IMG/VR virus record: IMGVR_UViG_3300020034_000022
Span: 1-52,338 of that record
Strand: one strand, 5' to 3'
Source: a virus
Taxonomy: Duplodnaviria; Caudoviricetes
DNA length: 52,338 bases
Shown here: piece by piece, positions 9,567-48,138 of the stretch
How positions within the stretch are numbered: the first letter of the stretch is position 1
Layout: each line of letters starts with the position of its first letter
Program-made: the position numbers and the translations under genes
The notes under the pieces: model-generated
What the model saw: the letters and a program-made list of their open reading frames with translations, nothing else
What the model was told of the DNA's origin: nothing
Databases searched by the model: none

Positions 9567-9941
9567 ATGGGCATTAAGACAGGTAACCCGCGAGGCCGGC
9601 CAAAGGGTAGTCCGAACAAGCGCACCGCGGCGAGGGACAGGGCGGTGAAGGCCGTGGTGGAGAAGTTGGCCGAGGTTATACCGAACCTGTTTGATGGCGA
9701 CTCTCACGCCTATTTGATTTCTATATACAAAGACCCGGCGCAACCCATGATGTCACGTATAGATGCGGCAAAAGCAGCCATCAAGTATGAGCGGCCGGCT
9801 TTGTCCTCAATCGAGCACAGCGGAGGTTTCGACGTTGGAATTAGCAAACTCGCAGGCGAACAGTTGGACGAAGCAATTCAACGAACTGCCGCTGAAGCAT
9901 CAATTACTCTTGCTGCTACAGGAGAAGGCAAGGCGGGTTAA
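9567..9941 (+). CDS. terS: terminase small subunit
   Basis: GNPRGRPKGSPNK and RIDAAKAAIKY; directly upstream of TerL. Confidence 0.75.
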   Translation: MGIKTGNPRGRPKGSPNKRTAARDRAVKAVVEKLAEVIPNLFDGDSHAYLISIYKDPAQPMMSRIDAAKAAIKYERPALSSIEHSGGFDVGISKLAGEQLDEAIQRTAAEASITLAATGEGKAG

Positions 9942-11349
9942 GTTACGGAAGCTATTCACCTATTTCCCTGACACCGGTCCGCTAAGACGCGAACTTTACA
10001 GGCAGCATCTTGAGTTCTTCCGGCTTGGCGAGACACACCAGATACGAGCGTTTTTGGCCGGCAATCGGATAGGAAAAACTGAGGGCGGTGGTGGCTACGA
10101 GCTAACCTGCCATCTCACAGGACGCTATCCAAGTTGGTGGGAGGGCGCAAGGTTCACCGAATACGTTCGGGCCTGGGCCGCGGGTGACACCAGACAGACC
10201 ACCAAGGACATCATCCAGCAGAAGCTGTTGGGCGATTGGGGCAAGTTTGGGACGGGATTAATACCCGGCGAAGACATCATCAAGACTACGCCCATGCAGG
10301 GTGTGCCTGAAGCCGTGGGTACCGTGTGGGTACAGCACTACGACGAACACGGCAAGAAGGATGGCATATCCCGGCTGGGGTTTAAGTCGTTCGACCAAGG
10401 GCGAGAAGCCTTCCAGGGTACCGAACAAGAGGTTATCTGGCTAGATGAGGAAGCTGACGAGGGCATTCGTAATGAATGCATTCTGCGTCTGATGACCACT
10501 GACGGTCTGTTAATAGAGACATTCACGCCGCTGAAGGGGCTGACGAAGATCGTCATGCAGTATCTCCCCGCGGGTTACGAGGAAGGCATGGCGAGAGTAG
10601 TCACTGGTAACAGAGCAATGGTCATGGCCGGCTGGGATGACGTGCCCCACCTGACTGAAGCGCAAAAACAGTTGATGCGCGAGGAAACGCCGCCGCACTT
10701 AATCGAGGCGCGTTCCAAGGGCATACCAAGTATCGGCGCTGGCGCTATATATCCCCTGGCCGAGTCTGAGTTTGTTGTGGACGACATACCAATACAACCG
10801 TCGTGGCCGAGAGCATACGCCATGGATGTGGGCTGGAATCGTACCGCCACATTGTGGGGCGCACTAGACCCTATAAACAATATTACCTACCTGTACGCCG
10901 AGTATTACCGCGGGCAGGCAGAACCGCCGATTCATGCTGCTGCGATTAAGAATCGAGGTGACTGGATACCGGGGGTCATAGACCCCGCATCTTCTGGTTC
11001 TGGACAACAGGACGGCAAGAAACTGGCTGAGTTATACGGCACTGGATCAAAAGGCCAAGGCCTAGACCTTGCCTTTGCGAAGAACGATGTTGAGGCCGGT
11101 ATTGCCGAGGTTTGGAAGGGTCTTTCAACAGGAAGCGTTAAGGTATTCAAGAGTTTGCAACATTGGCGCACAGAGTATCGGATGTATCACAGAAACGAAA
11201 AGGGCGTCATAGTGAAAGAAAGCGATCATCTGATGGATTGCACGCGCTACCTGCTGTTGTCGGGAATGCGGCGTGCTGTTAAGCAATCGTCAGGGAATAT
11301 CCCTAAACCGGTGCGCCAGCGCGTACTGGATCGCGGAACGGGCCTGTGA
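9835..11349 (+). CDS. terL: terminase large subunit
   Basis: Walker A AGNRIGKT, Walker B IWLDEE, nuclease DVG...DHLMDCTRY; GGAGG-led TTG at 9835. Confidence 0.95.
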   Translation: MELANSQANSWTKQFNELPLKHQLLLLLQEKARRVKLRKLFTYFPDTGPLRRELYRQHLEFFRLGETHQIRAFLAGNRIGKTEGGGGYELTCHLTGRYPSWWEGARFTEYVRAWAAGDTRQTTKDIIQQKLLGDWGKFGTGLIPGEDIIKTTPMQGVPEAVGTVWVQHYDEHGKKDGISRLGFKSFDQGREAFQGTEQEVIWLDEEADEGIRNECILRLMTTDGLLIETFTPLKGLTKIVMQYLPAGYEEGMARVVTGNRAMVMAGWDDVPHLTEAQKQLMREETPPHLIEARSKGIPSIGAGAIYPLAESEFVVDDIPIQPSWPRAYAMDVGWNRTATLWGALDPINNITYLYAEYYRGQAEPPIHAAAIKNRGDWIPGVIDPASSGSGQQDGKKLAELYGTGSKGQGLDLAFAKNDVEAGIAEVWKGLSTGSVKVFKSLQHWRTEYRMYHRNEKGVIVKESDHLMDCTRYLLLSGMRRAVKQSSGNIPKPVRQRVLDRGTGL

Positions 11350-13670
11350 TCGAACCAGGTGCTTTACCTGCACAGTTAGACGAGTCGCAGTTAGCCGCTA
11401 TAGCTGAAGCTGCGCTCAAAAAAGAAGAAGAACGTATTGTCCGTCTTAATTCATTAGCACTATCTCTTGGGTCGAAGCGCCGTACCGCTATTGATAACCG
11501 GGCGGCAAGCGGTATAGAGCAGATATGGCTGGAAGACGAGGACGCTTTTGACGGCATTGATGACGCTAATCGCGCTCAAGAAGGCGCTCAAGGAACTCGC
11601 CATAGATTTCTAAAGCCTACGTCATCGGCGGGAAGAGTAATTACCAAAAACGATGACGTAGACGAGAACGCCTGTATTTTGCTGCCGAACATCACGGCAC
11701 CTTACGCGGAAGCTGGTGCGGCGAGCATTGCGGACATACTGCTCCCGTTGGATGAATGGCCGTTCGCGCTTGACCCAACGCCTGTTCCTGAGTTGACCCA
11801 GGTTCTGGAGCAGATGGGTGACATGCCTGATGAGCAGATGGTGCAAATGCCAGGTATGCAACAACCGGCCCAAGCGGGTGCGTTAAAGGCAGAAGCAGAA
11901 CAAGTCCTTCAAAAGGCTAAGAAATGTGCTGAGAAGGCGGAGACACGTATCAAGGACTGGCTTACCGAATGCCAGTGGCACGGTAAGTCGCGCCGGCAGA
12001 TTGATGATGCTGCTCGTGTGGGTACTGGAATTGTTAAAGGTCCGGTGCCGAGCATGAAAAAACAATACTCATGGCAGGAAGAGGGCGGCGTTAAGAAGTT
12101 AACTATCAAAGAAGAAATCAAACCGATTACAGATAACGTTGATTTCTGGAACCTATTTCCTGACTATCCCGCTTGTGGTGAGAATATTCACAACGGCTCG
12201 TTCGTATTTGAGCGAGGTGAAATCACCCATAAGACATTACAAGGATTACGCGGGCAAGATGGATGTATTGATAGCCAGATCGAACTGTGCCTGCAAGAAG
12301 GGCCGATTCAGGCCGAAGTATATCCTGGAGACAAACAGCCCAAGGACGGCACGTTCGAGATATGGTGGTTTCACGGCGCTTTAGAGCGTGAGGACGTAGA
12401 GGCTGCTGGTTGTGACTGTTCCGACCAGCCAGAAGGCTACATATCAATTCCCGCAGTGATTACGGTAGTCAATAACCGTATCATCCGGGCTGCTTTAAAC
12501 CATCTGGATAAAGGTAGCTTCCCTTACGACATTCTGACGTGGCGCCGTCGCCCCGGAATGTCGTAAGGGCAGGGTATCCCACGACAGATCAGACCGGCGC
12601 AGCGAGGATTTACGGCGTGCTTCCGCGCGCTAATGGAGAATGCTGGGCTTAGTGCTAAGCCGATGATTGCCGTATTACGGAAGTATCTATTCCCTCAAGA
12701 TCAATCATGGCAATTATTCGGCGGCAAGGTATTTGAGGTTAGCGCAGACGCTGACGTAAGAGATATTAAAGCCGCAATCACAACCCTACAGGTTGATAGC
12801 CGGCAGGCTGAGTTGCTGGGCATCATGCAGTTTCTGCTAAAGATGGCCGAGGATATTACCGGCCAACCGGCTTTGTTACAGGGGCAGCAGGGTAAGGCGC
12901 CGGACACGGTAGGCGTAACGACCATCCTGAATAACAACGCCAGTGTTACCCGTAGACGCATAGCACGTCAGTTTGACGACCAGGTGATTGAACCCGGCAT
13001 CGGTCGTTACTACGACTATCTCATGCAGTACGGTGAGGATGAGGAAGAAAAGGGATTGTTCGTAATAGATGCCCGCGCTTCTAGTGTGCTAGTGGAACGC
13101 GACACGCAGAATCAGGGAATCATGCAGTTAATGGGCGCATCCGTAAATCAGGCCTATGGCGCCAACCCTCGTAAAGTGTTTGCTGCCGCTTGCAAGGCGC
13201 TGAAGATTGCTCCCGATGACCTCCAGTATACCGACGAGGAATGGAAGCAGATTCAGGAGAACGCCGCCAAACAGCCGGCAGACCCACGCATACAGGTAGC
13301 TCAGATCAACGCCGAACTTAAAGCGCAAGTCGAAGCCGGCCGCATTCAGTCAGAGTCGATAGAAAATGAGCGTGATCGTCAGAACGCATTGATTATCGCG
13401 GCCATAGATGAGCGCATGAACAGCACCGAACTCACTTCAGCCGAGCGGCAGAACCTTGACAAGATCAAGGGTACGCTCTCAGGTAAGGTGATTGAGGTCA
13501 AAGCGCAGCAACAACTGACCCGCGAAAACATGGAGCATCAGAAAGATGTGACCGTGGCTGGGCATAAGATGGACCTGCATAAGCATCGCAATCCGTCGCC
13601 TGACGTGATTAAAAAGCCTGCCGTTGAACCCCCTGGCAGGGCCGCTGAAGGTCAGGCGTTCGTGCAATGA
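11346..13670 (+). pseudogene. portal protein interrupted by one in-frame TAA (12564-12566); pseudogene, recoded gene or sequence error
   Basis: ORFs 11346-12566 and 12633-13670 share a frame, and the gap reads *GQGIPRQIRPAQRGFTACFRAL; position after TerL; GTGIVKGP and WNLFPD motifs. Confidence 0.8.
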
Positions 13671-14771: not shown

Positions 14772-15815
14772 ATGCCTATCCAAACCTACTCGACCAGTGC
14801 AGGTCGTATCAACGAAATCAAAGGCGAAATGCTCGCCATGGCCGAACCGACAATGGTTCTGGCGATGGGCGCCGAAATGAAGCGCATCCCCAAGAATAAG
14901 GGTGACAACATCAGCTATCGCCGTCTTATCCCGACTGGTGGCGCAACAACCAACTCCAACACGATCAATCGTTGGAGTGTTTCCGCAGTGGCGCATCTGT
15001 TGCAAGAAGGTGTGACGCCGAACGCTGAAACGCTGACGGATCAATACGTTAACGTTCAACTGAGCGAATACGGCGCGATTTACGGCTGGACCAACAAGAC
15101 GGCCGACTTGCACGAAGACGACATCCCTGGCGACATGAAGTCTATTCTCGCAAAGCGTATGGGTCTGGTGCAGGAAATGATTCGCTACGGCAGCATGAAG
15201 GCGTGCTCTAACGTCTCCTACGCCGGTGGTACGACTCGTGCCACGGTAGACGAAGCTATCTCCCTGCTGGTGCTGCGTCGTATGGCGCGTACCCTGTTGG
15301 CGAACCATGCCAATAAAAAGAGCAAGGTTATCGCTGCTGGCCCGGATTACGACACCTCGGCGATTGAAGAAGCGTTCATGGTGTTCGTGCATACCGACGC
15401 CGCGGCTGACGTGCGCGATCTACCTGGCTTTGTACCGGTGTCGAAATATGCTGGCTTCAAACCGCTTAGCCCCAAGGAAATCGGTTCGTGCGAGGAATTC
15501 CGCTTCATCCTCAGTCCTGAACTCGCGTCCTATGCCGATTCTGGCGCTGCGATTGCTTCGACCGGGCTGTATTCCACGACCGGCTCACTGATCGACGTGT
15601 ATCCGTTCATCGTTTGCGGTGAAGACGCGGTATTCGACATTGGCCTTAAAGGTGGTGATTCGTTCAACCTCTCCGTGATTCCGCATACGCAGAAGGACAA
15701 GAACGACATTCTTGGTCAGCGCGGCTATGTCGGCGCAAGCTTTTGGTCTGCGGTTCTTGTTGCCAACAATGGTTTCATGGGCGTGATCGAAGCCGGCGTT
15801 GATTCCCTGGCCTAA
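14772..15815 (+). CDS. major capsid protein, N4-gp56 family
   Basis: LQEGVTP, FVHTD...DVRDLPGFVPV.KY, EIGSCEEFRF, D.LGQRGYVG. Confidence 0.9.
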   Translation: MPIQTYSTSAGRINEIKGEMLAMAEPTMVLAMGAEMKRIPKNKGDNISYRRLIPTGGATTNSNTINRWSVSAVAHLLQEGVTPNAETLTDQYVNVQLSEYGAIYGWTNKTADLHEDDIPGDMKSILAKRMGLVQEMIRYGSMKACSNVSYAGGTTRATVDEAISLLVLRRMARTLLANHANKKSKVIAAGPDYDTSAIEEAFMVFVHTDAAADVRDLPGFVPVSKYAGFKPLSPKEIGSCEEFRFILSPELASYADSGAAIASTGLYSTTGSLIDVYPFIVCGEDAVFDIGLKGGDSFNLSVIPHTQKDKNDILGQRGYVGASFWSAVLVANNGFMGVIEAGVDSLA

Positions 15816-17530: not shown

Positions 17531-17878
17531 ATGGCAGCTATTGCGCCGACCCTCACCAGGCATGGCCCTGATGCCGCTCTTGTTTCGTGGCTGGCTGTAG
17601 GAAACGGAGACACGTTTGCGCCATTCAACCGGCTATCGCACTCCGGATTTACACGTAGGAGCGTACAGATAACAGGGACGTTTGGCAGCGCAACAGTTGT
17701 CATCAATGGTTCTATAGATGGGACTACTTACGCGGGACTGAGCGATGTTCAAGGCACTCTGGTAAGTAAAACGGCTGCTGGCTTTGAACAGCTTCAGGAC
17801 ATTACGCCTTTCGTTCAGCCGGCTAAGTCTGGCGGTACTGGCGAAAGTATCAACGTGTATATGTTCCTGGCCCGTTAA
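17531..17878 (+). CDS. putative virion beta-sandwich protein
   Basis: SVQITGTFGSATV...GS.DG; TAATG-coupled to the next gene. Confidence 0.6.
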   Translation: MAAIAPTLTRHGPDAALVSWLAVGNGDTFAPFNRLSHSGFTRRSVQITGTFGSATVVINGSIDGTTYAGLSDVQGTLVSKTAAGFEQLQDITPFVQPAKSGGTGESINVYMFLAR

Positions 17879-20800
17879 TGCTCGTCTCCGTCCGCGCCAA
17901 CAACATCAAGCGTGTCAAGTGGCGCACACCAACACCGGGCGGAGTAACGGTATCGTGGGCGAGTAATCCTACACCTTCATTTGTTGCCGGCTCCACGACT
18001 CCGTATGTCATATCGGGATTTGTAGATACCTATCTTGCTGCTACGGATTCAATCTCGCTGGCTCCGGGAAGTGCGGCTTTACCTACGGGTATTTCGCTTT
18101 CAGGGATTGGCGCATCACTAACGGCTGGTGGCAATCAGGTTGCTGGAAGTTACACGGGCATTAAGTTTCGCGTTACGCGTATCGGCGCCGCAACTCCAGC
18201 AGACACCGAACTAATAACCATTGTCGTAAATGCAGCGAGTGGTGTTGTTCGTCCCGGTCCAGGCCACGTCAAGATAACGATTACCTCTCCGTTGAGAGGG
18301 GCTTCGTCTATCACGGCTTCGACGCCGGTTCTTTATACAACTACCAATTGGGTGAACGGGCCGGCAGAGTTATTGGTAGATGGCATTGTTCACGATACCG
18401 CTACGGTGAGTTCGCCGGGATTGACCTTGGACCCCAGCGCTTTAACGGCTGGCCCCCACCTGATGTATATCCGCATCGTCCAACTATCGCCTTTAAGAGA
18501 TGGACGCTCTACGGATGTGGTGTTCATGAAAACACCGCTGCCGGCACTGACCAGTACCAGACCTGTAGGCGCTTCTGCATTCGGCCCGTACCTTTATTTC
18601 AATCTGCCGAATACCGGTACCAGAGGGCAGAGCTACGTTCGTTTCCAAGTTGGACCGTATGTATTCCGAGGGTCTACCAACCCCATAGCGATACGCTCGC
18701 AGACGCACAGCGGGGCAACGATAACCCCGTCAGGCCGTATCAAGTTCACGCTGGATAACGTGCCGTTTGGGAGCTTCATTGACCCCAATGCTACGGAGTG
18801 GGTAGGCAATTTCGATACCACCGGGATCCCCGAAGGCTCGCATTATCTTTCAGCAGTAGCGGAAGACAATAGTAAATGGTGTGAAGGTATCAACATCGAG
18901 GTTGACAACAATCTCGCCGCCGAGACAGGGGCTAGAGATGTTTGGGTTTCGTCAATTCTCTATGACCATGAATACAACATCGTTCCGCATGATGAGCGTG
19001 CTTTTAAAGTCACGTATCCCGGAACGTTTCAGGATTTTCAGGGCGATCCTATACCACAGCCGGGAAGGACGCGTACACCGTGGAGCACCTGGAGCACCGT
19101 AACCAACTGGAAAGATTTTTGGTCGCAGCCTGTTGGCGTGTGTATCCGTCAGGGCTGGCCGCGGCGTCTAAATGAGACTGCTGCTGGTTTTATCAATACC
19201 AACCAGTACATGCAGTACCCGTACTTCGGGCTGGATTCTCCCGGCATGCCTTTGTATGACGGGCCGAGAGGCGTTGCGACGTTCGGTCATGCATGGGCTG
19301 GTTTTACCCACGCCTTAACCGGAACCGTCTACGGCATCAGTACTCAAGGTGCTTTGTGGGTGCTGCATATATCAGGACGCAAGACGACAATAGCCGGCAA
19401 GCGTCGTCCGATCAACAGGCTTCCCAAGCCGTACGACGAACTGGAATTAGTGGGCAACTGGCTGGATGGACCTGTCGGATTTAACGAGCCGTGGGGTCTT
19501 GCTCACGATGCTCGTGATGGAGACATCACCCAAGCTAATACTTTTCTCAAGACGTTTCTAGTCACCGACACTTACAACCATTGCATCAGACTGGTTGACA
19601 TTACCCCGTTTGCATTGGACGGCGGACAGCCGACCATTACCACAATCGCGGGTAGCAAGACTTCAACCCCCGGATTTGTAGACGGGCCTTTAGCCACCGC
19701 CAGATTCGACGCTCCCTGGGACATCTGCGCAGACAACGCCAGACCCGGCGTGTTCTTCTGTACCGATTTTAACAACGGCGCTATTCGTGAAATCAACCTG
19801 AATACCGGGATGGTTTCAACCGTCGTCACTTCGGCTTTTCCGCGGCACGGTGGACGCCGAATACTGAATGCAGCCTTAGAACAGAACTACTACCCGCAAC
19901 CTGAGCATACGCACGTAGGCGGCACCTTCGGTGTGGGGCATCTGTCCTTTCCGCAGTCCATCAAGATGGACAGTCAGGGTCGGTTGTTGGTCACTTGCAA
20001 ATACGCCAAGGGACCGGCCACGGTTACGACTTATGGCGGCGGGGTTCTGGTTCGCGTTGATCTGGTGGCGCATACCATTAGCGATGCACTGTTCTCGCCG
20101 GCATGGGATTCCAATGTCCGTGATTGGTACATAGCTTTATCCGATGGTACTTGCGGACCGCTTGATTTTGTATACGGCACCCGTTGGGGCTATTCGTTCA
20201 TGCTTGAGCCGAATGGCTCCGGTGGTTATACCCAGCGCGGCGAAATTCCATTTACGTCTGATGGTACGTGGATACCGGGTTGCATAGAAGGCCCATCCCA
20301 TAGCACCACCATTGTTTCGTATCCATCGATGGTTACGTGTGCTGGTGGTCAACTGACGATCATGGGTACCGGTGCTGAGTGCGCCTACAGAATCACCAGG
20401 AAACTACCGACCGACCCGGTTTTTAATAACACGACATTTAGCGCTGGTTACAACTTATATACCGCGACATGGGGCATACGCCACGGCCTAAGAGGTCATG
20501 ACACTTTAGAGAGCCTTGGTTTTTCGCATATTCGTCAGTTTGACGATGCGACGCTGGGTGCCCTTCTAAGCTCTGGCTGGGGGCTGGAATATTCCCCTAC
20601 GTTTACCTCGCAGCAGATTGCCGACTTAATTTACTACATTCGCTGGCCGGTACCTTATGTCGCGCCGGAGCCTCCGGAAGACCCCGAAGACCCGCCAGTA
20701 GGCGCCATTGCAACCGTAATTCTTACATCGCCCGCACCCGGCGCGACGATCACGGGTTCGACTCCGGTGACGTACACCACGACGAACTGGACGGATGGCT

Positions 20801-23064
20801 CGGCGGTTCTTTATGTGGATGGTTATGAACATGCCAGAGCCACAGTCGCCAGTCCTACGCTGACCTTTAATCCCACCGGATTAGTCAACGAGCCGCATAC
20901 GATTTACATCGAGATTGAGCCGGTAACGCTGCTTAACGCTCGCTCCAACAATATCGTTGTGCTGACCACGATGACGGCTTGGCCGACGCTGGCCCCGTAC
21001 GCCGGCCAGCCGATGACCTACAGCACGTACATGTATTTTTTCACGCCGGCCACCCTGACCAAAGGGCAGTCTTACACCAGACATTATGTTTACCCATGGC
21101 CGTTTAGTGGCGCAGTCAATCCGGTTCAGGTACGCATACAACAACTAGGCGGCACGCCGAGAACAAGTCTACAACGCATAAAACTCTATGTGGACAACGT
21201 GCCCGTTGGCGGATTTATCAGTCCCGGTGCGGTTTCTGCTGGCGAAACCAAGTGGGACGGCAATATCGATGTGACCGGGTTAGCTCCGGGTTCCCATGTC
21301 ATTCATGCGGAAATGGAAGACGGCTCTACCTGGTGCGAAGCGACTTTACTTGCAATAGGAACTGCTCCTACAGGACCACAAAACGTATGGGCAATCAACG
21401 TCGCCTTTGATGCTATTTTCAACCTGCATCAACCGGAATCCAGACCGTTCAAGGTTTATTACGGCGGGACTCTGCCGCGACACCGCGGGCAATACAGACC
21501 GATAGGGGAGCGTGCCAGAACAGCATGGACCACCTTCCTTGCCGCCAGTAATTTCTGGGCAACGCCTTATTCGTCGTGCATTAACTTAGGCTCAACCATC
21601 CGCTTTGAGAAGACGACGACGGGCCATGTTCACACTTACACAGGCCAAAAATATCCCTACGCAAACTTAGCAACACAGGACATGCCGCTGTACGACGGGC
21701 CTATAGGTCAATTGTCTTTCGGCCATGCCTGTGGCGCTATAAACGATGTCAATGCCAATGTCTGGGGGATTAGTACAGAGGGCCGCTTCTGGAAGCAGGA
21801 TGAAACCGGCTGGCTAAGGACTTACGCCGGAATACATCGTTCTGATACGGTGACACCTACATCTCCTGGGGTATGTGAAGCCATCGGGAATTTCGTTGAT
21901 GGCATAAACCATTTTGAAGAGACATGGGGGATTGCTTCCGATATTCGGGATAACCCGGCAGACCTCAGAAACTTCTATTTAACAGACACCTATAACCACT
22001 GCATACGACTGGTGAATATCAACAACACCTTTGTTAAAGGTGGGGTTGCAAATATCACTACCGTAGCAGGGAGCAAGACAGGGACTTCGGGATTTGTCAA
22101 CGGCACGCTGGATGTGGCGAGGTTCAGTGCCCCGTGGGGTATTTGCGCCGACAGATTCAATGCGGGCATTTTTTACGTCACTGATTTTAACAATGCCGCG
22201 ATACGCAAGATTGACCTGAATACGGGTCTGGTTTCCACACTGGTAGTTTCATCCAGTCCCAATCCCGGCACTCTTGCAAGACCTGAAACCATCCCATCAT
22301 TCAGTCCGCCGACGCATTTACACGTCGGCGGGGCTTTCGGCGTGGCGACCTTGTACTGGCCGCAAGGCATCTGTCAGGACAGTCAGGGGCGTTTACTGGT
22401 TGGCTGTAAGTACGCAGGTTCCGCCAAAGGCGGATGCCTGGTGCGTATCGACATTCAGGCGCAGACCATTTCCAGCGCCTTATACAGCCCGCCATTCAAT
22501 GCGAATTCTCACGACTGGCAGTTAGCGGTAAATCATGACGGTACTACTGGTGATCTGGACACGGTTTACCTCACACGCTGGGGCGATAGTTTTGTGCTTA
22601 AGCCAGACGGTGCTGGTGGTTATACCGATTTCGGCCTGTTGATGACCAATGAAGCGGACGGACTTTACTCGCCCGGTGTTGGAGAAGGTCCGGCCTATAT
22701 CGGCTATCGCGTGGCGTATCCGGCCGCGATTAGCTGTGATTACGGATTCATTTTTGTGACGGGCATCGGCAGTGAATGCGCGTGGCGATATACCCGCAAA
22801 GAAGTCACCGACCCCGCCTTTACGATTACCCAGCACGACAAACACGAGCGCGGCTATCTGCTGTTCAGAGCGACGTGGGGTTCCAGACACGGCCGCGTAG
22901 GGGCGGATCACTTTGAGGGTCGAGGCATACACGAACTTAGACAGTTCAATGACGCGACCATGGGCCTCATTTTGCAGAACGGATGGGGCATAGGTTTTCT
23001 ACCTGAATTCACACCGACTGAATTATCCGACCTGATTTATTACATAAGGTGGCCGTTCGTATGA
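17878..23064 (+). CDS. 1728-aa protein: N-terminal module plus two tandem (Ig-like + NHL beta-propeller) units
   Basis: duplicated TDTYNHCIRLV, ARF.APW.ICAD, TDFNN.AIR and DLIYYIRWP; PEPPEDPEDPP linker. Confidence 0.8.
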   Translation: MLVSVRANNIKRVKWRTPTPGGVTVSWASNPTPSFVAGSTTPYVISGFVDTYLAATDSISLAPGSAALPTGISLSGIGASLTAGGNQVAGSYTGIKFRVTRIGAATPADTELITIVVNAASGVVRPGPGHVKITITSPLRGASSITASTPVLYTTTNWVNGPAELLVDGIVHDTATVSSPGLTLDPSALTAGPHLMYIRIVQLSPLRDGRSTDVVFMKTPLPALTSTRPVGASAFGPYLYFNLPNTGTRGQSYVRFQVGPYVFRGSTNPIAIRSQTHSGATITPSGRIKFTLDNVPFGSFIDPNATEWVGNFDTTGIPEGSHYLSAVAEDNSKWCEGINIEVDNNLAAETGARDVWVSSILYDHEYNIVPHDERAFKVTYPGTFQDFQGDPIPQPGRTRTPWSTWSTVTNWKDFWSQPVGVCIRQGWPRRLNETAAGFINTNQYMQYPYFGLDSPGMPLYDGPRGVATFGHAWAGFTHALTGTVYGISTQGALWVLHISGRKTTIAGKRRPINRLPKPYDELELVGNWLDGPVGFNEPWGLAHDARDGDITQANTFLKTFLVTDTYNHCIRLVDITPFALDGGQPTITTIAGSKTSTPGFVDGPLATARFDAPWDICADNARPGVFFCTDFNNGAIREINLNTGMVSTVVTSAFPRHGGRRILNAALEQNYYPQPEHTHVGGTFGVGHLSFPQSIKMDSQGRLLVTCKYAKGPATVTTYGGGVLVRVDLVAHTISDALFSPAWDSNVRDWYIALSDGTCGPLDFVYGTRWGYSFMLEPNGSGGYTQRGEIPFTSDGTWIPGCIEGPSHSTTIVSYPSMVTCAGGQLTIMGTGAECAYRITRKLPTDPVFNNTTFSAGYNLYTATWGIRHGLRGHDTLESLGFSHIRQFDDATLGALLSSGWGLEYSPTFTSQQIADLIYYIRWPVPYVAPEPPEDPEDPPVGAIATVILTSPAPGATITGSTPVTYTTTNWTDGSAVLYVDGYEHARATVASPTLTFNPTGLVNEPHTIYIEIEPVTLLNARSNNIVVLTTMTAWPTLAPYAGQPMTYSTYMYFFTPATLTKGQSYTRHYVYPWPFSGAVNPVQVRIQQLGGTPRTSLQRIKLYVDNVPVGGFISPGAVSAGETKWDGNIDVTGLAPGSHVIHAEMEDGSTWCEATLLAIGTAPTGPQNVWAINVAFDAIFNLHQPESRPFKVYYGGTLPRHRGQYRPIGERARTAWTTFLAASNFWATPYSSCINLGSTIRFEKTTTGHVHTYTGQKYPYANLATQDMPLYDGPIGQLSFGHACGAINDVNANVWGISTEGRFWKQDETGWLRTYAGIHRSDTVTPTSPGVCEAIGNFVDGINHFEETWGIASDIRDNPADLRNFYLTDTYNHCIRLVNINNTFVKGGVANITTVAGSKTGTSGFVNGTLDVARFSAPWGICADRFNAGIFYVTDFNNAAIRKIDLNTGLVSTLVVSSSPNPGTLARPETIPSFSPPTHLHVGGAFGVATLYWPQGICQDSQGRLLVGCKYAGSAKGGCLVRIDIQAQTISSALYSPPFNANSHDWQLAVNHDGTTGDLDTVYLTRWGDSFVLKPDGAGGYTDFGLLMTNEADGLYSPGVGEGPAYIGYRVAYPAAISCDYGFIFVTGIGSECAWRYTRKEVTDPAFTITQHDKHERGYLLFRATWGSRHGRVGADHFEGRGIHELRQFNDATMGLILQNGWGIGFLPEFTPTELSDLIYYIRWPFV

Positions 23065-35701: not shown

Positions 35702-38700
35702 ATGGCAAGCATCTTTGACGAACTGGACAACCAGTTCTACAGCGCTAAAGACCGCATTCCTTCTGGCAGTCCGCGTGAGTTCGCTGATAGCGTCGCGCCG
35801 ATGTTGCAGCCGGTTGCCGACCGGCTTGGCGTTGACCCTTATTTACTCGCGGCGCAATTCGGCCTTGAAACAGGCTGGGGCAAAAGCGTAATCAGGGGAA
35901 CTAACAATCTAGGCAATATCAAGGATTTCTCTGGCTCTGGTGTTGCTGCAACGGACAACATGACGGGAAGCCGTGACAAGTATCGCGCCTACGATTCTCC
36001 CCAAGCATTTGCGGATGACTACGCGACACTCATTGAAAAACGCTATCCGAATGCTGTAGGCGCGGGAGATGACCCGGTAAAGTTTGCTAGTGCGTTAAAA
36101 GCCGGTGGATATGCGGAAGACCCGGCATACGTGTCTAAGATCGAAGCGGCGTACAAGGCTGTGAGAAACGGCGAAGCCAAGCCATCTAAAAGCGTCTTCG
36201 ATGATCTGGACGACCAATACTACAAACAACAAACGCCCAAGGCTCCGGTATCTATCAAGCGCTCTGCTGGCGAAGCCATATCTGACGTAACCAAATCCGT
36301 AGCGCAAGGCGTAGGTCAGACGATTGAGGGAATAGGTACGCTGTACGGCCTAGCTTCAGGCGATATGAACAATGGTCTTCGAGACCTCGGTAAAACCACT
36401 GGCGACTATTGGGAAAACGCTCGAAGTGAGGGATTGAAGGAACGCGAAGTTCAACGTAAGCAGCGCATAGATTCTGTCGAAACCAATGCCGGCAAGTTTG
36501 GCACAGCGATCTGGGAGACGGTTAAAGACCCTGCATTACTCTCTACGATCATCGGCCAGAATATCCCCATGCTGGTGCCTGGTGCGGTCATAGGCCGTGC
36601 GGGACGCGCTGTGGGGGCTGCTGCCGGCCTCGGAGAAAGAGGCGTCAATCTTGCAACAGTAGGCTCTGCAATAACGGGTAACGCCGTCATGCAAGGCTCC
36701 GACGTAGCAGGAGATGCGTACGACAGCGCCATGGCACTCCCGCAAGAACTGTGGGAAAAGAACAGCGCGTACCTGACGCTCAGCGAACAGGTAGGTCCGG
36801 CCAAAGCCAAAGAGTCGATGGCGCGTGACATGGCCCTGAAAGCGGGTGTCTACGGCGCTCTAATATCTGCCGGTGTAAATTCAATACCCGGTATGCAGTC
36901 TGTTGAAAAGCTGCTTACCGGAACGCTCCGCGCCAGCGGTCAAGGCGCCGTAAAAGGCGCTTTAGGCGGAACCCTGAAGGAAGCCGGAACCGAGGCGATT
37001 GAGGAAGGCGGCGGCAAAGCAGTGGGAAACCTTGCCCTCCAAGCCGTTGATCCTACCCGTCCTCTGGATAAAGACGTGGCGGAAGCGGCTGGATTAGGCG
37101 CTGCTGGCGGTGGCCCGTTCGGTGCTGTAGCCGGAGGGATACAAGGCCGCGTCGCGCCCGCAGCGCTCCAGCGCGAGCCTACCCTAGCGCCCACGGTCCC
37201 GCAGCGCGAGCCTGTCACGACAGCCGAAGGCGTCGCCCGCGTCCAAGCCGCCCCCACAGTAGAAGCCGCGGCAGAAGAAGCCGAACGCGCCATATTTGCC
37301 CCACTGGAAGGCGATGTAGGTAAGACCGTTGCTGAAGGTCTTTCCATTCCCCGTATCGCTGGACTACTTCCCGCTCCCAACGAAGCTCTACCAGTTACAG
37401 CACAAGGTCAGGCCATCACGCCTGAACAGGCGGCAACTGTTCAAAATCAACAACTTACAGAACGCCTTGACATAGACCGCGACGGACTCGGTTTAACGCC
37501 TGACGTACAACGTGCCCAAGTAGCTCGTGCGGAATCTGCACAAGCTGAAACAGCCATTCAAATCGCCTTCCAGCAGGCACAGGAACGCGCCGCAGCACGG
37601 CAGACGGCAGAGACATCCCAACAGGTAGAAGCGCCTGCCCCTGTAGCCGCGCCAGTTAGTGCAGAATCCACACAATCTCCTGTAATTTCACACCCCCCTG
37701 TGAATATTTCACACCCTGTTCAGGAAACGCGAACAGCGGCTAAGAATGAACAGCCAACATCCGATGTTGTTCCACAAAAGGCATCTGGCGGAGTGGGTGA
37801 CTTTGTAGGAACCGGTGCAAAAGCCAATATTCCGGCAGGAAAACAGCTAAAAGCACCGGATATTTCCACGTCCGAGACTATTCCGCAGAAAAGTCCAGAG
37901 GCAGACGGAATCCGCCCGCACCTTGAGACACTCGTCAAACGTCGCGCCGTAGCAAAACAACTCGGCTACGAACGCACATTTAACGCTGCCGTGGAGAAGG
38001 CTAAAGCGGCGATGAAGGGGGAAACGATCAATCCCCGCGTGTTCGAGACTTACGCCAAAGCGTTCGCCAAGGATGAGCAATCGGCTAATGCTATGCGGGG
38101 GATTGCGGCTGGTATAAAAACAAAGGCGTCGTCTGTGGACGCTGCGGCGAATCAGGCCGCAACATCTGCGGAGAATAAGCTGCCGGAGCCTACCGAGGCG
38201 CAGCGTGACGCTGGGAATTTCCCCATGGGTCATACCAATGTCGGTGGCTTGGACATCTCTGTTGAACATCCGGCCGGCACGAAGCGTCGCCCAGAGTGGC
38301 CTACGCTTGATTCACATTACGGTTACGTGAAAGGCGTCGCTGCGCGTGCTCCCGATAAAGAGCATGTAGACGTTTTCGTTAAACCCGGTACGGCTGAAGA
38401 TTATTCCGGTAGCGTGTTTGTGGTTGACCAAAACCACGAGGACGGAACCTACGACGAGCCGAAAATAATGGTAGGCCACGCCACAGAAGCAGAAGCACGC
38501 GAGGCGTATCTAAAGAATTATACGAAAGGCTGGAAGTCTCGTGTACGCGGTATCACTCCGCTTACGATGGACGAGTTCAAGGCCAAGCTGAATGACGCTA
38601 ACGGATTCAGCAAGCCGCAAGTTGCCGAAACCCCAGCGCCAGTCGAAGCCAAACCAGAACCCGCCAAGCTTGACAAACCCGCCACAGAAGTTGACAAAGC

Positions 38701-41700
38701 GCAAGACCTATTAGCCGGTATTTCCAAAGCCATCGCTGACGGCATGGCCGAGGGGATTAAGGCGGCTACGAATCAGTTTACGGAACCAGTTAAAAGCTCA
38801 CCTGAAGTGAGTGTTTCAGAGGAAAAGCAAACCAAACTCTCCCGCACAGAAGAACGCACGCCGGGTCTTGCCATCCGCGACGCCCAAGCCGTCTTCGACC
38901 GCGTAGCCAAGCGGTATAAGAATCTCCCTCCGGTCACTATCCTAAACAGTCCTGACGAATTACCCAATCGCGTAAAAGGCTTGCGTGAGGATATTCAAAA
39001 AGCACAAGCGTGGGAAGACGTAGAAGCTGCATATTACGATGGGGAAATCTTCGCCTTTGCGGATAATGTTAAAGACGAAGCACGTTTTGAGCATGTGCTA
39101 TTTACGCACGAACTCACCCACTATGGTTTAAGGGGTGTTCTAGGTACAACGCTGGACGCATCCTTAAACGGACTCATGGCCCGCAGTCCTGAACTGCGTC
39201 GTAAGGCTACCGAGCTTCGTAAAAAGTTAAACCTTGATTCCAACGTATCGGCTATGGAAGAAGCGTTAGCCGACATGCCGACGAGCGAACTCCTGCAACT
39301 GAAGGGTATCGACAAACTCTTATCTACATTAAGAAACTGGCTGAATAATCACGGCTTTACCAAACTTGCTGAACGCCTAGATACAATTCTAACCAATCGT
39401 ATTGGCGAAGAAAAAGCGGCTGATGCGTTGCTGAGTGATATTGTAAAAGCTGCTAGGGACTTTGCTAGAAACGGTAAACCCTCAAGCCAGATATACATGG
39501 GCGGCACTAGGTTTGCTGGTGTTTTCCCATCGCAGACTAACTCGCCTGAATTTAAGAAATGGTTCGGCGATAGCGTGGTGGTAGATGATGACGATAAGCC
39601 ACTGCGCGTGTATCACGGCACGCATGCCAACTTTGATACTTTCGTTGAAGGCAATAACCTAGAGAACTTTGGCGGATTATTCTTCACGAACGATCCTAGT
39701 GTAGCGTCTAGGTACGCTGGCGTTGATGAGAATTTTCCAGCGGCCGAAGTTGGTTCAATAATGCCGGTTTACCTAAAACTGGAAAATCCGCTAGTAATAG
39801 ATTTCAAAGGCAGTAAGGACGGCAGGGCTGATGCGCTGCTCAATGCGCGGGCTAATGGGCATGATGGGGCGATTCTTCGCAATAGCTTCGACGCTGGTGG
39901 TGTGCAAGACCAGTATGTAGTGTTCAATCCAGAACAAGTTAAATCCGCTATAGGCAATCGCGGTACGTTCGATGCGAACAATGCTGATGTGCGGTTTAGC
40001 CGTGCCTCATGGGACGCACCAGAACCGACCAAACTAGACAATGTAATTTACTCCCTGCAAGACAAACACATAGATACTCGAAGGGTAGTCCAAGCGATTA
40101 AGAAAAACGCAACAAACTTGGCCGACTCTGTAGACGTGTATCTTCAGGAAGAACTGTTCCACGGGCGCACGGCAAAATTAGTTGAAAGTTTCCTCTCCAA
40201 AGAGCTGAATCCGCTCATGAATCAGATGAGCATGAGAGGCATTAAATCCAAGGACGATATTAAAGCCTTCGAGAAATACCTACACGCCCGTCATGCTCAG
40301 GAACGTAACGAGCAAATAGCAAAAGTTAATCCGGCCATGCCTGACGGCGGGTCTGGTATGACGACCAAGGATGCTAAGGATTACATATCCAGCCTAGACC
40401 CTGCCAAGCAAAAGGGTTATGAAGCGCTGGCGAAAGCAGTTGATGCCATCAATGTAAAAACACGGCAGTCATTAGTAGACTATGGATTAGAGTCTCAGGA
40501 AACAATCGACGCATGGAACAATGCCTATAAGCATTACGTTCCGCTACAGCGCGAGGACATGGAAGGCGGGCCGGGACTCGGACAAGGCTTCACGGTTAAA
40601 GGCTCTGCCAGCAAACGTGCCACAGGTTCCAAGAAAACCGTTGTGGATATTCTGGCTAATATAGCCATGCAACGGGAAAAGGCGATTGTCCGTGGCGAGA
40701 AGAACAAAGTAGCAAATGCTCTAGTAGGACTTGCTACAGCTAATCCAAACGCTGACTTCTGGGAAGTGGATAACCCGCCTAAAATCAAATACATCGACCC
40801 GCGTACAGGGTTAGTCAATGAAGCCGTTGACCCCATGTATAAGTCACGAGATAACGTGGTTACGTCACGTACGCCTGATTCCACGGGGGCAATCGTAGAA
40901 CACGCAGTAATATTCGATGAAGGCGACGAACGAGCGGTACGCATGGCGAAGGCTCTGAAGAACCTGGACGCCGACCAGCTTGGCGAAGTGCTTGGTACTG
41001 TAGCTAAAATGACCCGGTACTTCGCTGCGATAAACACGCAATATAACCCCATCTTCGGCGTAGTGAACATCGTGCGTGATACTCAGGGCGCAATGCTGAA
41101 CCTTTCTACTACTCCGATAGCAGATAAGAAAGCCGAAGTCTGGAAGAACACGCTTTCAGCATTACGTGGGATTTACATTGATTTGAGAGATACACGGGCT
41201 GGTAATCAGTCCACGTCTGCATGGGCGCAGCTATTCGAGGAATTCCAGAACGAAGGTGGGCAGACGGGTTACAGGGATATGTTCCGCACGTCGAAAGACC
41301 GTGGCGAAGCTATCGAACGTGAAATTACCAAAGTCTCCGAGGGTAAGTTAAAACAGTTTGGACGTGGTGTATTCGATTGGCTGTCGGACTATAACTCCGC
41401 ACTGGAAAATGCGGTTCGTCTGTCAGCTTACAAGGTCGCTAAAGATGCTGGAATATCTAACCAGCAAGCGGCAAGCATCGCAAAAAATCTGACGGTCAAC
41501 TTTAACCGCAAGGGCCAGGTCGCCTTGCAAACTGGAGCCTTGTACGCATTCTTCAACGCTTCGGCTCAAGGTACTGCGAGACTTGCGGAAACCCTCAGAG
41601 GTCCGGCCGGCAAGAAGATTATATCCGGTGGAATTATGCTAGGCGTGGTGCAAGCGTTAGCCCTAGCCGCGGCTGGATTCGATGACGAGGAGCCGCCAGA

Positions 41701-42598
41701 CTTCGTACGTGAGCGTAACTTTATTATCCCGATAGGCGACAAGAAGTACCTGACCATCCCCATGCCTTTAGGCCTTCACTTCCTGCCAAACTTAGGACGC
41801 ATTCCTGCCGAGTTCGTGTTATCCGGATTTAAAAACCCGGCAAAGCGCATAGGATCGTTGTTCAACGTATTCGCTGACACGTTCAACCCGATAGGTAATG
41901 CGGGACTGTCATTGCAGACTATCGCGCCTACGGTAATTGATCCACTGGCAGCGTTGGCAGAAAACCGTGACTGGACGGGTAAGCCTATCGCCAAACAGAG
42001 CAACCCGCTCGCTCCTACCCCAGGACATAGACGCGCCAAGGATACCGCCAGCGCCTTCAGCAAAGCCGTCTCAGAGGGCTTGAATTGGGTATCCGGAGGG
42101 ACGGACTTCAAACCCGGATTCTTCAGTCCTACCCCTGACCAACTGGATTACCTGATAGGACAGGTCACAGGGGGTCTAGGACGCGAGGCGATGAAAGTTG
42201 AGCAGACCGTAGGCAGCGGGTTTACGGGAGAGGAACTGCCCCCCCACAAAGTCCCGCTGGTAGGCCGTTTCTACGGCGATTCTGAAGCGGGTTCCAGCCA
42301 AGCGGCGCCGTACTACGAAAACATTAAACGACTGAACGAGCACGAGGCTGAGATTAAGGGCCGTCGCAAGAGTGGACAACCAGTAAATGAGTATCTCAGT
42401 GACAATCCCGAAGCAATGTTATTCCAGCTAGGAAACAGTGTTGAGCGGAAAGTCGGCGAGCTTCAAAAACGCAAGCGTACCTTGCTGGAAAACGACGCCC
42501 CACGAGAACAGGTCAAAGCTATCGAGGAACAGATCAAGCAGCAGATGAAAACGCTCAACGAAAGAATACGCCGCGTTCAGGATCGAATAGCAGCATAA
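35702..42598 (+). CDS. 2298-aa polyvalent ejection protein: GH73 muramidase, PPase-like, HExxH peptidase, ART-like and LPD38-like domains
   Basis: LETGWG/NNLGNIK/GYAEDP.Y; HYGYVKG..HVDVF..VFVVDQ; HELTH; FKKWFGDS..VYHGT..QYVVF.PEQVKS; TVNFNRKG and EN.DWTGKPI. Confidence 0.85.
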   Translation: MASIFDELDNQFYSAKDRIPSGSPREFADSVAPMLQPVADRLGVDPYLLAAQFGLETGWGKSVIRGTNNLGNIKDFSGSGVAATDNMTGSRDKYRAYDSPQAFADDYATLIEKRYPNAVGAGDDPVKFASALKAGGYAEDPAYVSKIEAAYKAVRNGEAKPSKSVFDDLDDQYYKQQTPKAPVSIKRSAGEAISDVTKSVAQGVGQTIEGIGTLYGLASGDMNNGLRDLGKTTGDYWENARSEGLKEREVQRKQRIDSVETNAGKFGTAIWETVKDPALLSTIIGQNIPMLVPGAVIGRAGRAVGAAAGLGERGVNLATVGSAITGNAVMQGSDVAGDAYDSAMALPQELWEKNSAYLTLSEQVGPAKAKESMARDMALKAGVYGALISAGVNSIPGMQSVEKLLTGTLRASGQGAVKGALGGTLKEAGTEAIEEGGGKAVGNLALQAVDPTRPLDKDVAEAAGLGAAGGGPFGAVAGGIQGRVAPAALQREPTLAPTVPQREPVTTAEGVARVQAAPTVEAAAEEAERAIFAPLEGDVGKTVAEGLSIPRIAGLLPAPNEALPVTAQGQAITPEQAATVQNQQLTERLDIDRDGLGLTPDVQRAQVARAESAQAETAIQIAFQQAQERAAARQTAETSQQVEAPAPVAAPVSAESTQSPVISHPPVNISHPVQETRTAAKNEQPTSDVVPQKASGGVGDFVGTGAKANIPAGKQLKAPDISTSETIPQKSPEADGIRPHLETLVKRRAVAKQLGYERTFNAAVEKAKAAMKGETINPRVFETYAKAFAKDEQSANAMRGIAAGIKTKASSVDAAANQAATSAENKLPEPTEAQRDAGNFPMGHTNVGGLDISVEHPAGTKRRPEWPTLDSHYGYVKGVAARAPDKEHVDVFVKPGTAEDYSGSVFVVDQNHEDGTYDEPKIMVGHATEAEAREAYLKNYTKGWKSRVRGITPLTMDEFKAKLNDANGFSKPQVAETPAPVEAKPEPAKLDKPATEVDKAQDLLAGISKAIADGMAEGIKAATNQFTEPVKSSPEVSVSEEKQTKLSRTEERTPGLAIRDAQAVFDRVAKRYKNLPPVTILNSPDELPNRVKGLREDIQKAQAWEDVEAAYYDGEIFAFADNVKDEARFEHVLFTHELTHYGLRGVLGTTLDASLNGLMARSPELRRKATELRKKLNLDSNVSAMEEALADMPTSELLQLKGIDKLLSTLRNWLNNHGFTKLAERLDTILTNRIGEEKAADALLSDIVKAARDFARNGKPSSQIYMGGTRFAGVFPSQTNSPEFKKWFGDSVVVDDDDKPLRVYHGTHANFDTFVEGNNLENFGGLFFTNDPSVASRYAGVDENFPAAEVGSIMPVYLKLENPLVIDFKGSKDGRADALLNARANGHDGAILRNSFDAGGVQDQYVVFNPEQVKSAIGNRGTFDANNADVRFSRASWDAPEPTKLDNVIYSLQDKHIDTRRVVQAIKKNATNLADSVDVYLQEELFHGRTAKLVESFLSKELNPLMNQMSMRGIKSKDDIKAFEKYLHARHAQERNEQIAKVNPAMPDGGSGMTTKDAKDYISSLDPAKQKGYEALAKAVDAINVKTRQSLVDYGLESQETIDAWNNAYKHYVPLQREDMEGGPGLGQGFTVKGSASKRATGSKKTVVDILANIAMQREKAIVRGEKNKVANALVGLATANPNADFWEVDNPPKIKYIDPRTGLVNEAVDPMYKSRDNVVTSRTPDSTGAIVEHAVIFDEGDERAVRMAKALKNLDADQLGEVLGTVAKMTRYFAAINTQYNPIFGVVNIVRDTQGAMLNLSTTPIADKKAEVWKNTLSALRGIYIDLRDTRAGNQSTSAWAQLFEEFQNEGGQTGYRDMFRTSKDRGEAIEREITKVSEGKLKQFGRGVFDWLSDYNSALENAVRLSAYKVAKDAGISNQQAASIAKNLTVNFNRKGQVALQTGALYAFFNASAQGTARLAETLRGPAGKKIISGGIMLGVVQALALAAAGFDDEEPPDFVRERNFIIPIGDKKYLTIPMPLGLHFLPNLGRIPAEFVLSGFKNPAKRIGSLFNVFADTFNPIGNAGLSLQTIAPTVIDPLAALAENRDWTGKPIAKQSNPLAPTPGHRRAKDTASAFSKAVSEGLNWVSGGTDFKPGFFSPTPDQLDYLIGQVTGGLGREAMKVEQTVGSGFTGEELPPHKVPLVGRFYGDSEAGSSQAAPYYENIKRLNEHEAEIKGRRKSGQPVNEYLSDNPEAMLFQLGNSVERKVGELQKRKRTLLENDAPREQVKAIEEQIKQQMKTLNERIRRVQDRIAA

Positions 42599-46939: not shown

Positions 46940-47200
46940 ACTGCAACAATGTTGATTTAATTGAACAAAAATTCGGGTAAAGCGGCCAAGAAGATTTCTC
47001 TACGTTGCCTCGTAACGCCTTGATTTTTATAGACCTGATTCCCGGAAATTGGGAAAGGTTTTGTAGATGACTGCCGAGAAAATTAGGCAGTGAAATCAGA
47101 GAATTACGTGCGATCAGTGCCCATTTGATGGGATAATAAAATGGCATTGTTTTATAAGGACTTTTTGACATTCGTTTGTTTAGTTCTCTCCGTTTGGATA
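46940..47200. other. probable attP region
   Basis: AT-rich, 3' of the integrase; IHF consensus WATCARN4TTR at 47013-47025 (-) and 47094-47106 (+). Confidence 0.55.
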
Positions 47201-48138
47201 TTCTTAATCGGGAAAACTACCTGTGGCTTTCTCAAATATCCGTCCGTCGTGCGCGAGTCCGAATGACCTAACCTGCCTTGCGCTGTCGGTGCGTCGTCGC
47301 TGGCCGACTTTGCGCGAATGTCATGGAATCGCACATCCTGAATACCGGCTTTCTTCGCGCCCTCGGCGAAGGCTCTGGATACCGTTATTTCGTTCATTGG
47401 CGTGCCGTTGCGGTTGCAGATGACCGTCAGCCCTCGGACGCCACCCGGCAACGTCCTGGCGCGTTCTATGACCACTTTAACCTCGTCTGAAAGCTGGTAA
47501 GTTATTGGCTTTCGGGACTTTGGCGGTTGGAAGCTCAGAATGCCGTCCTTAATGTGGCTGAATTTCATCGTCACCACGCCGGACACGCGCAGCCCCAGCA
47601 GGTACGCGAGGTCTGCGGCCACCTGATAGACCGGCTTTAACTTTTCGCGGATTGCCAAAAACTCACTGTCATTCAGGTATCTGTCACGCTTCGACTTGTT
47701 ATCGAGAGCCATTCCCTGGAACGGGCTTTTCAGAATGAAATCGCGGTCGGACGCCCACTTGTAAACCTGCTTTAGAAATAGCACGCCGTTGCGAGCGCTT
47801 TGCTTGTGCGGGTGTTCGTCAATGAATCTGAGCGCCAGTCCTTGCGTCATTTCCTGAATCGGGCAGTCAACGAAAACACGGTTAATCGTATCCTCGGACT
47901 GCCGGTAGGATTTCATGGTGTTTGGCCGCAGGGTTATTGGCCGGCTGGAAACGTACTTCGCCATCAGCCAGCCAACGGTGTTGCTCGTGGACGCGACGGC
48001 CTCAATCTCCATGTAGCGCCGATAGACGAGGTTCCAGTCTTTGCCCAATGGCTCCCACTTACGGGGCTTGCCACCATAGTCGTAGTAGTAGCGCGGCCCC
48101 TGCTTGCGCAGGCGTGGGAAATCCTTTTTCACCGACAT
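47152..48138 (-). CDS. int: tyrosine integrase
   Basis: GLRVS, K, FHDIRAK, LGH...T..Y catalytic set; N-terminal arm-binding domain. Confidence 0.92.
   Translation of the reverse strand: MSVKKDFPRLRKQGPRYYYDYGGKPRKWEPLGKDWNLVYRRYMEIEAVASTSNTVGWLMAKYVSSRPITLRPNTMKSYRQSEDTINRVFVDCPIQEMTQGLALRFIDEHPHKQSARNGVLFLKQVYKWASDRDFILKSPFQGMALDNKSKRDRYLNDSEFLAIREKLKPVYQVAADLAYLLGLRVSGVVTMKFSHIKDGILSFQPPKSRKPITYQLSDEVKVVIERARTLPGGVRGLTVICNRNGTPMNEITVSRAFAEGAKKAGIQDVRFHDIRAKSASDDAPTAQGRLGHSDSRTTDGYLRKPQVVFPIKNIQTERTKQTNVKKSL

Follow-up and report, generated by a model that had tools for sequence, protein, structure and literature searches.

The window analysed here is a linear virus record of 52,338 bases (CheckV completeness estimate 85%), whose portal gene is interrupted by one in-frame TAA (12564-12566). 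This stop is very probably the product of a single quasi-palindrome template-switch conversion of the Ripley/Lovett type and not a programmed feature. Such events, mutational or technical, are an established category and involve no recoding, editing or new genetic code; wherever the switch occurred, this phage has an intact portal gene in its working genome.

As the first-pass annotation had noted, the portal gene is a single 774-codon frame with one stop. The gene and its neighbours are as follows.

9763-11349, + strand: terminase large subunit gene, directly upstream of the portal gene (PF03237 Terminase_6N, E 8.1e-15; phrog_2, E 2.7e-29)
11346-13670, + strand: portal gene (T7/SU10 type), one 774-codon frame with a single stop, TAA
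12564-12566, + strand: in-frame TAA; TGG (Trp) in independent contigs and in the DNA of 10/10 relatives
14772-15815, downstream of the portal gene: major head protein gene (phrog_1357)

The stop stands in the peptide context PGMS*GQGIPRQ of the window translation, and both portal halves match phrog_332 (E 1.1e-9 and 8.9e-17) at contiguous profile positions, 26-272 and 276-536. The read-through protein, with X at the stop, matches PF23899 SU10_portal over residues 369-567, spanning the stop, with 45.2 bits and hence above the curated cut-off of 30; this match appears on the read-through protein only, and a Pfam search of each half alone returned 0 families. The frame 11346-13670 is therefore one portal gene with one nonsense codon. 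It resembles the T7 gp8 and SU10-type portals (phrog_332, PF23899) in having profile matches on both sides of the stop and a large-terminase neighbour, and in being collinear with, and similar in length to, relatives of about 750 aa, whereas the window copy alone has Ser-stop where its closest relatives have Pro-Trp. A search against profiles of solved structures with the portal alignment gave 0 matches at E <=0.001. The record has the terminase adjacency but lacks an uninterrupted portal gene of about 750 codons; the portal is uninterrupted in independent contigs of the sample and in the listed relatives. The GTG start of the portal gene overlaps the terminase TGA (GTGA, 11346-11349), and this overlap suggests that the two genes may be translationally coupled. 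The next ORF start after the stop is ATG 12633, with no GGAG-like Shine-Dalgarno motif by eye in the 20 nt before it, in agreement with the first-pass annotation. A split portal with restart at this ATG was considered and rejected, no split form being present among the relatives listed (best 120 of 419).

Two public runs, X1 and X2, from one sample had been flagged as a possible source of the record, and 98% and 95%, respectively, of the sampled words of the portal gene are present in them. Logan contigs of both runs span 11346-13670 (for X1 in a single 5194-letter record), with a depth over the gene of 7.3 and about 7. Window and contigs disagree at exactly 4 of 2325 positions, and the comparison shows no indels, joints or loose ends.

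12561: T in the window, C in the contigs
12565: A in the window, G in the contigs
12566: A in the window, G in the contigs
12569: G in the window, C in the contigs

By our own arithmetic, about 39 of the 2295 31-letter words overlap these four positions, which accounts for the 2% of words missing from X1. The contigs read CCG TGG GGC (Pro-Trp-Gly), that is, an intact portal in agreement with the family consensus; the four differences are directly observed, as are their positions and direction. As X1 and X2 come from the same sample, they provide one check independent of the assembler of the record rather than two, and minor alleles may be hidden in Logan contigs, which drop rare variants.

All four differences fall within one arm of an inverted repeat around the stop. 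A repeat search (and likewise a self-match) returned a 17-nt repeat of 94% at 12518-12534 / 12556-12572, the perfect 14-bp core of which, CCCTTACGACATTC / GAATGTCGTAAGGG, encloses a 21-nt spacer.

12521-12534, + strand: 5' arm CCCTTACGACATTC, codons of the conserved FPYDI motif; same in the contigs; putative donor or template of the conversion
12535-12555, + strand: 21-nt spacer (loop), identical to the spacer of the relative L006
12556-12569, + strand: 3' arm GAATGTCGTAAGGG, holding the putative converted tract (12561-12569), the stop and all 4 contig differences
12581-12586, + strand: ACGACA, a second, weaker pairing option for 12559-12564, unused in the minimum-energy folds

The 14-bp core is the sole perfect inverted repeat of at least 12 bp (loop 3-60) in the 52,338 bases of the window, and a perfect inverted repeat of at least 14 bp occurred in 0/40 first-order Markov simulations; the repeat is therefore far beyond chance. 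The predicted hairpin has a free energy of -21.4 kcal/mol as DNA (z -4.67) and -38.7 kcal/mol as RNA (z -4.48), with 0/200 shuffles as good in either case. The first-pass annotation had overlooked this repeat with its upstream partner, as well as the abnormal Ser (TCG) before the stop, and had placed the TAA opposite CC in a stem formed by TGTCGT and ACGACA. Both of these sequences are indeed present (12559-12564 and 12581-12586), but they do not form the main structure: whether folded as DNA or as RNA, the region is predicted to pair the TAA with the upstream TTA (12524-12526) and not to place it opposite CC. Within 12559-12586, the converted segment can also pair with the downstream CCCACGACA (12578-12586), with which the intact version would form 8/9 pairs (hand count), and the intact gene would offer this segment two competing partial partners, each containing ACGACA.

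Paired by hand, the arms of the intact version form 10/14 Watson-Crick pairs, two G.T pairs (12525/12565 and 12524/12566) and two mismatches (A.C at 12529/12561 and C.C at 12521/12569). These four non-Watson-Crick positions are exactly the four positions that differ, and the window reaches 14/14: its letters at 12561, 12565, 12566 and 12569 pair with 12529, 12525, 12524 and 12521, respectively, the 5' arm being unchanged. An imperfect inverted repeat is thus present in the intact version (and in relatives, with 7-11/14 pairs), and the changes are clustered in one arm, each of them (4/4) complementary to the unchanged other arm. Because all four changes perfect the palindrome, they carry the signature of a template switch. 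At the codon level, CCG TGG GGC turns into TCG TAA GGG, giving Pro>Ser, Trp>stop (two changes) and a silent Gly (GGC>GGG), and the silent change fits a mechanism that is blind to coding.

In quasipalindrome template switching, as described in PMC7202029, a polymerase departs from its template where it meets an imperfect inverted repeat, uses the opposite arm as template and then goes back; the signature is that the imperfect repeat turns perfect or more perfect, with several changes per event. The examples given there are phage T4 rIIB and yeast CYC1 (Ripley 1982), in which such mutations were first seen, and the E. coli thyA hotspot (Dutra and Lovett 2006). The portal site is like these examples in that an imperfect repeat is made perfect through clustered substitutions in one arm while the other arm is unchanged. 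The described cases are known from genetic reporters; here, by contrast, the sequence is a metagenome-derived record, and we infer the switch itself from its signature.

The event could have proceeded as follows. In the intact gene, the codons of FPYDI (12521-12534) and G-M-P-W-G (12556-12569) make up, by coincidence, the initial imperfect inverted repeat. A polymerase copying the + strand would arrive at GAATG (12556-12560), and its nascent 3' end would anneal to CATTC (12530-12534) in the upstream arm, which could belong to the nascent strand itself or to the sister template. About 9 nt (12561-12569) would then be copied from the upstream arm before a return to the correct template ahead of 12570, a position at which the authentic C is retained in the window, facing T 12520. 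In this way all four non-complementary letters would be replaced at once and the palindrome would become perfect. Short-range template switching is also reportedly seen as mutation clusters in genome comparisons, as fixed differences between eukaryotic genomes (PMC7954356; bioRxiv 10.1101/2021.11.26.470150). The portal site shares with these the local substitution cluster from what would be one inverted copy event, whereas here it is two assemblies of one sample that differ.

Ordinary point mutations that arose separately while a defective genome decayed, such as a tandem GG>AA plus two unrelated substitutions, are a very improbable source of the same letters. A decaying prophage is conceivable given the integrase of this phage (see below), but the sole four differences in 2325 bases lie within 9 nt and each makes a Watson-Crick pair; by our own rough arithmetic, the chance that four random substitutions would hit just these positions and letters is of the order of 1e-13. 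The remainder of the portal gene is identical to the intact contigs. Moreover, no other long frame is visibly interrupted in the crude ORF map, which is not a full check, in line with the earlier remark that no other gene looks decayed. The mutation routes proposed in the first-pass annotation do not hold either, since GG>AA through a UV-type CC>TT change leaves 12561 and 12569 unexplained, and TAY>TAA conflicts with the TGG of the relatives.

The possibility that no molecule ever had this sequence, the assembler having stitched fold-back chimeric reads from the quasi-palindrome into a false path, is also unlikely, though somewhat less so than independent mutation. The changes are missing from the independent assembly of the sample, and chimeric reads at inverted repeats are documented in PMC6941819 and PMC10908179. 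However, a single fold-back would leave authentic sequence on one side only, while the window is authentic on both sides of the 9-nt tract, with a spacer identical to that of L006 and a frame that continues downstream. In addition, the two classes of chimeric reads would share only the 14-nt arm, presumably shorter than the usual assembly word lengths.

The region around the stop has 419 homologous proteins at E <=0.001, the best 120 of which were aligned. Most of these proteins are uninterrupted and 716-817 aa long, a few are shorter partials, and their identity reaches up to 79%. Among the best 120 of 419, the column of the stop holds W in 87, A in 23, T in 9 and S in 1, the column before it holds P in 86, W in 33 and V in 1 (Ser, TCG, in the window), and the column after it holds G in 120/120. 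The statement in the first-pass annotation that related portals have an aromatic residue here (WG.G) is borne out by this Trp in 87/120, followed by the invariant Gly. The 29 closest of the 120 relatives read P/S-G/S-M/S-P-W-G, mostly PGMPWG and all with Pro before Trp, and the FPYD motif is conserved among the aligned relatives.

At the DNA level, 20 loci were found, and 10 of them, which cover the site, were used. L012 reaches to about query residue 413 only and gave no hit in the site motif search, L015, L016, L017, L022 and L023 cover the site incompletely, and L018-L021 (43%, with HWAG at the site) were excluded from the DNA alignment. All ten used loci (59-67% protein identity) have CCN TGG GGN, and a stop at this column occurs in 0/120 proteins (best 120 of 419) and 0/10 DNA loci. 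That the 29 closest proteins and all ten DNA loci read Pro-Trp-Gly indicates that the window version is the derived state. More distant searches returned little: a megablast of the portal gene against 50,697 phage records gave no match, and tblastn against the same records gave distant portals only, all below 60% identity (best 36.9%). A scan of IMG/VR gave one distant locus (L003, 33%), absent from the site motif search, and a scan of GTDB genomes gave one locus in a MAG (L024, 53%).

The homologous arms of the relatives form 7-11/14 Watson-Crick pairs (hand count). With G.U counted, 79.4% of the cells pair across relatives, a value reached by 245/500 shuffles, and the covariation of the arms is not above shuffles either (130/500 reach the observed value). 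No sequence but the window forms the pair 12529/12561 (1/9 distinct rows). Folded over the same 86 nt, 0/4 relatives have an exceptional hairpin (z -1.54 to +1.85), and the window hairpin is missing from the minimum-energy structures of all four. These unexceptional folds, together with the lack of covariation above shuffles, indicate that the hairpin is not a conserved element; the imperfect repeat is thus a by-product of the codons of two conserved peptide motifs. L006 (1520-1582) shares its 21-nt spacer with the window and forms 11/14 Watson-Crick pairs between the arms (hand count). It comes about as near to a perfect palindrome as this phage does in its intact form; the same hotspot may therefore exist in relatives.

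The first-pass annotation had offered hairpin-stimulated read-through as one option, and programmed read-through or bypass of the TAA would indeed yield a full-length portal, the frame going on past a stop that lies within a very stable predicted RNA hairpin (-38.7 kcal/mol, z -4.48). Against this, neither the stop nor a stimulatory structure is conserved in relatives: the stop is found in none of the proteins and DNA loci examined, the exceptional hairpin in none of the four relatives folded, and pairing and covariation do not exceed shuffles, while the TGG form is present in the same sample. The portal is present in 12 copies per virion. A rare read-through product would have no evident use for a protein needed in that number, and we consider the chance that the stop is read through by programme to be very slight.

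Smaller still, and close to negligible, is the chance of A-to-I editing of UAA to a Trp-like codon, also raised in the first-pass annotation, or of TAA reassigned as a sense codon. A>G accounts for two of the four differences, as editing would give, but the differences lie between DNA assemblies: the G form is in the DNA contigs themselves, alongside T>C and G>C changes. No deaminase was found among the 24 of the 59 mapped ORFs that were scanned against PHROGs, as the first-pass annotation had also observed for the window, and 0 RNA runs of the sample are on record. Nor does the window show the pattern of stop-codon reassignment, namely many in-frame TAA, few TAA terminators and a suppressor tRNA. 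TAA ends 28/58 other ORFs and is the commonest terminator (ORFs of at least 70 aa, greedy non-overlapping set of the crude ORF map), an ARAGORN search of the window gave 0 tRNA genes, and none of the other long frames in that map requires a TAA to be read through; the earlier statements that TAA is a normal terminator and that no suppressor tRNA is visible are thus confirmed.

The first-pass annotation had named in advance two findings that would speak against its unusual options, TGG in the sample and a sense codon without a conserved hairpin in all relatives. The independent contigs supply the former and all relatives examined the latter, and therefore read-through and A-to-I editing fall, whereas its ordinary options, a nonsense mutation or an error, stand.

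On the one hand, the switch could have taken place in vitro, during amplification or library preparation. On the other hand, it could have taken place in vivo, giving a recent portal-null variant of a presumably temperate phage. We regard the two as having roughly even odds. Library-preparation artefacts with palindromic context and multi-nucleotide substitutions are described by Tanaka et al. 2020 (PMC6941819) and Chen et al. 2024 (PMC10908179), where they appear as calls of low allele fraction with read-position bias, often on chimeric reads. The portal site shows the palindromic context and the multi-nucleotide substitution by which PMC6941819 characterises such artefacts, and its substitution likewise matches the opposite arm. 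It differs from the described artefacts, which are of low allele fraction, in that the change has entered an assembled consensus, where it is flanked by authentic sequence on either side. If the Logan contigs and the record were built from shared reads, two assemblers chose different alleles, and a substantial fraction of TAA reads is therefore needed. Such a fraction would exceed that of typical low-frequency library artefacts.

For an origin in vivo, the following gene bears on whether a portal-null variant could persist.

47155-48138, - strand: tyrosine-integrase-like ORF, 328 aa (phrog_1, E 3.5e-36)

This ORF suggests that the phage is probably temperate, and in the prophage state a mutant lacking the portal could be maintained. 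We regard it as possible, if somewhat short of an even chance, that the TAA allele is a template-switch mutant that arose in vivo and makes up an appreciable share of the soil population alongside the intact allele, perhaps in the form of a recently inactivated prophage. In that case the FPYD/MPWG codon pair, which is conserved across this portal family, would act as an inherent quasi-palindrome hotspot by which the portal gene is disabled again and again.

With the portal intact in the sample, the stop is of little biological import. Its use lies in the curation of viral sequence databases: where an essential gene contains a single nonsense codon, and this codon lies inside a perfect short inverted repeat that is imperfect in relatives, the pattern points to template-switch conversion and can be recognised from the sequence and a few relatives, and it should not be taken as evidence for a pseudogene or for recoding. 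If the switch took place in vivo, the record would provide a natural example, in an uncultivated phage, of a mutation class first described in phage T4 rIIB.

Two other large ORFs of the window were observed. ORF 17878-23064 (+), of 1728 aa, lies in the structural module and has no PHROG match at E <=1e-5. In the giant ORF 35702-42598 (+), of 2298 aa, the N-terminal parts are endolysin-like (phrog_3513, phrog_938), residues 293-968 give a DarB-like antirestriction match (phrog_10089), and the C-terminal region of 850 aa matches phrog_14770 (E 1.5e-202); the product is probably an ejected internal virion protein.
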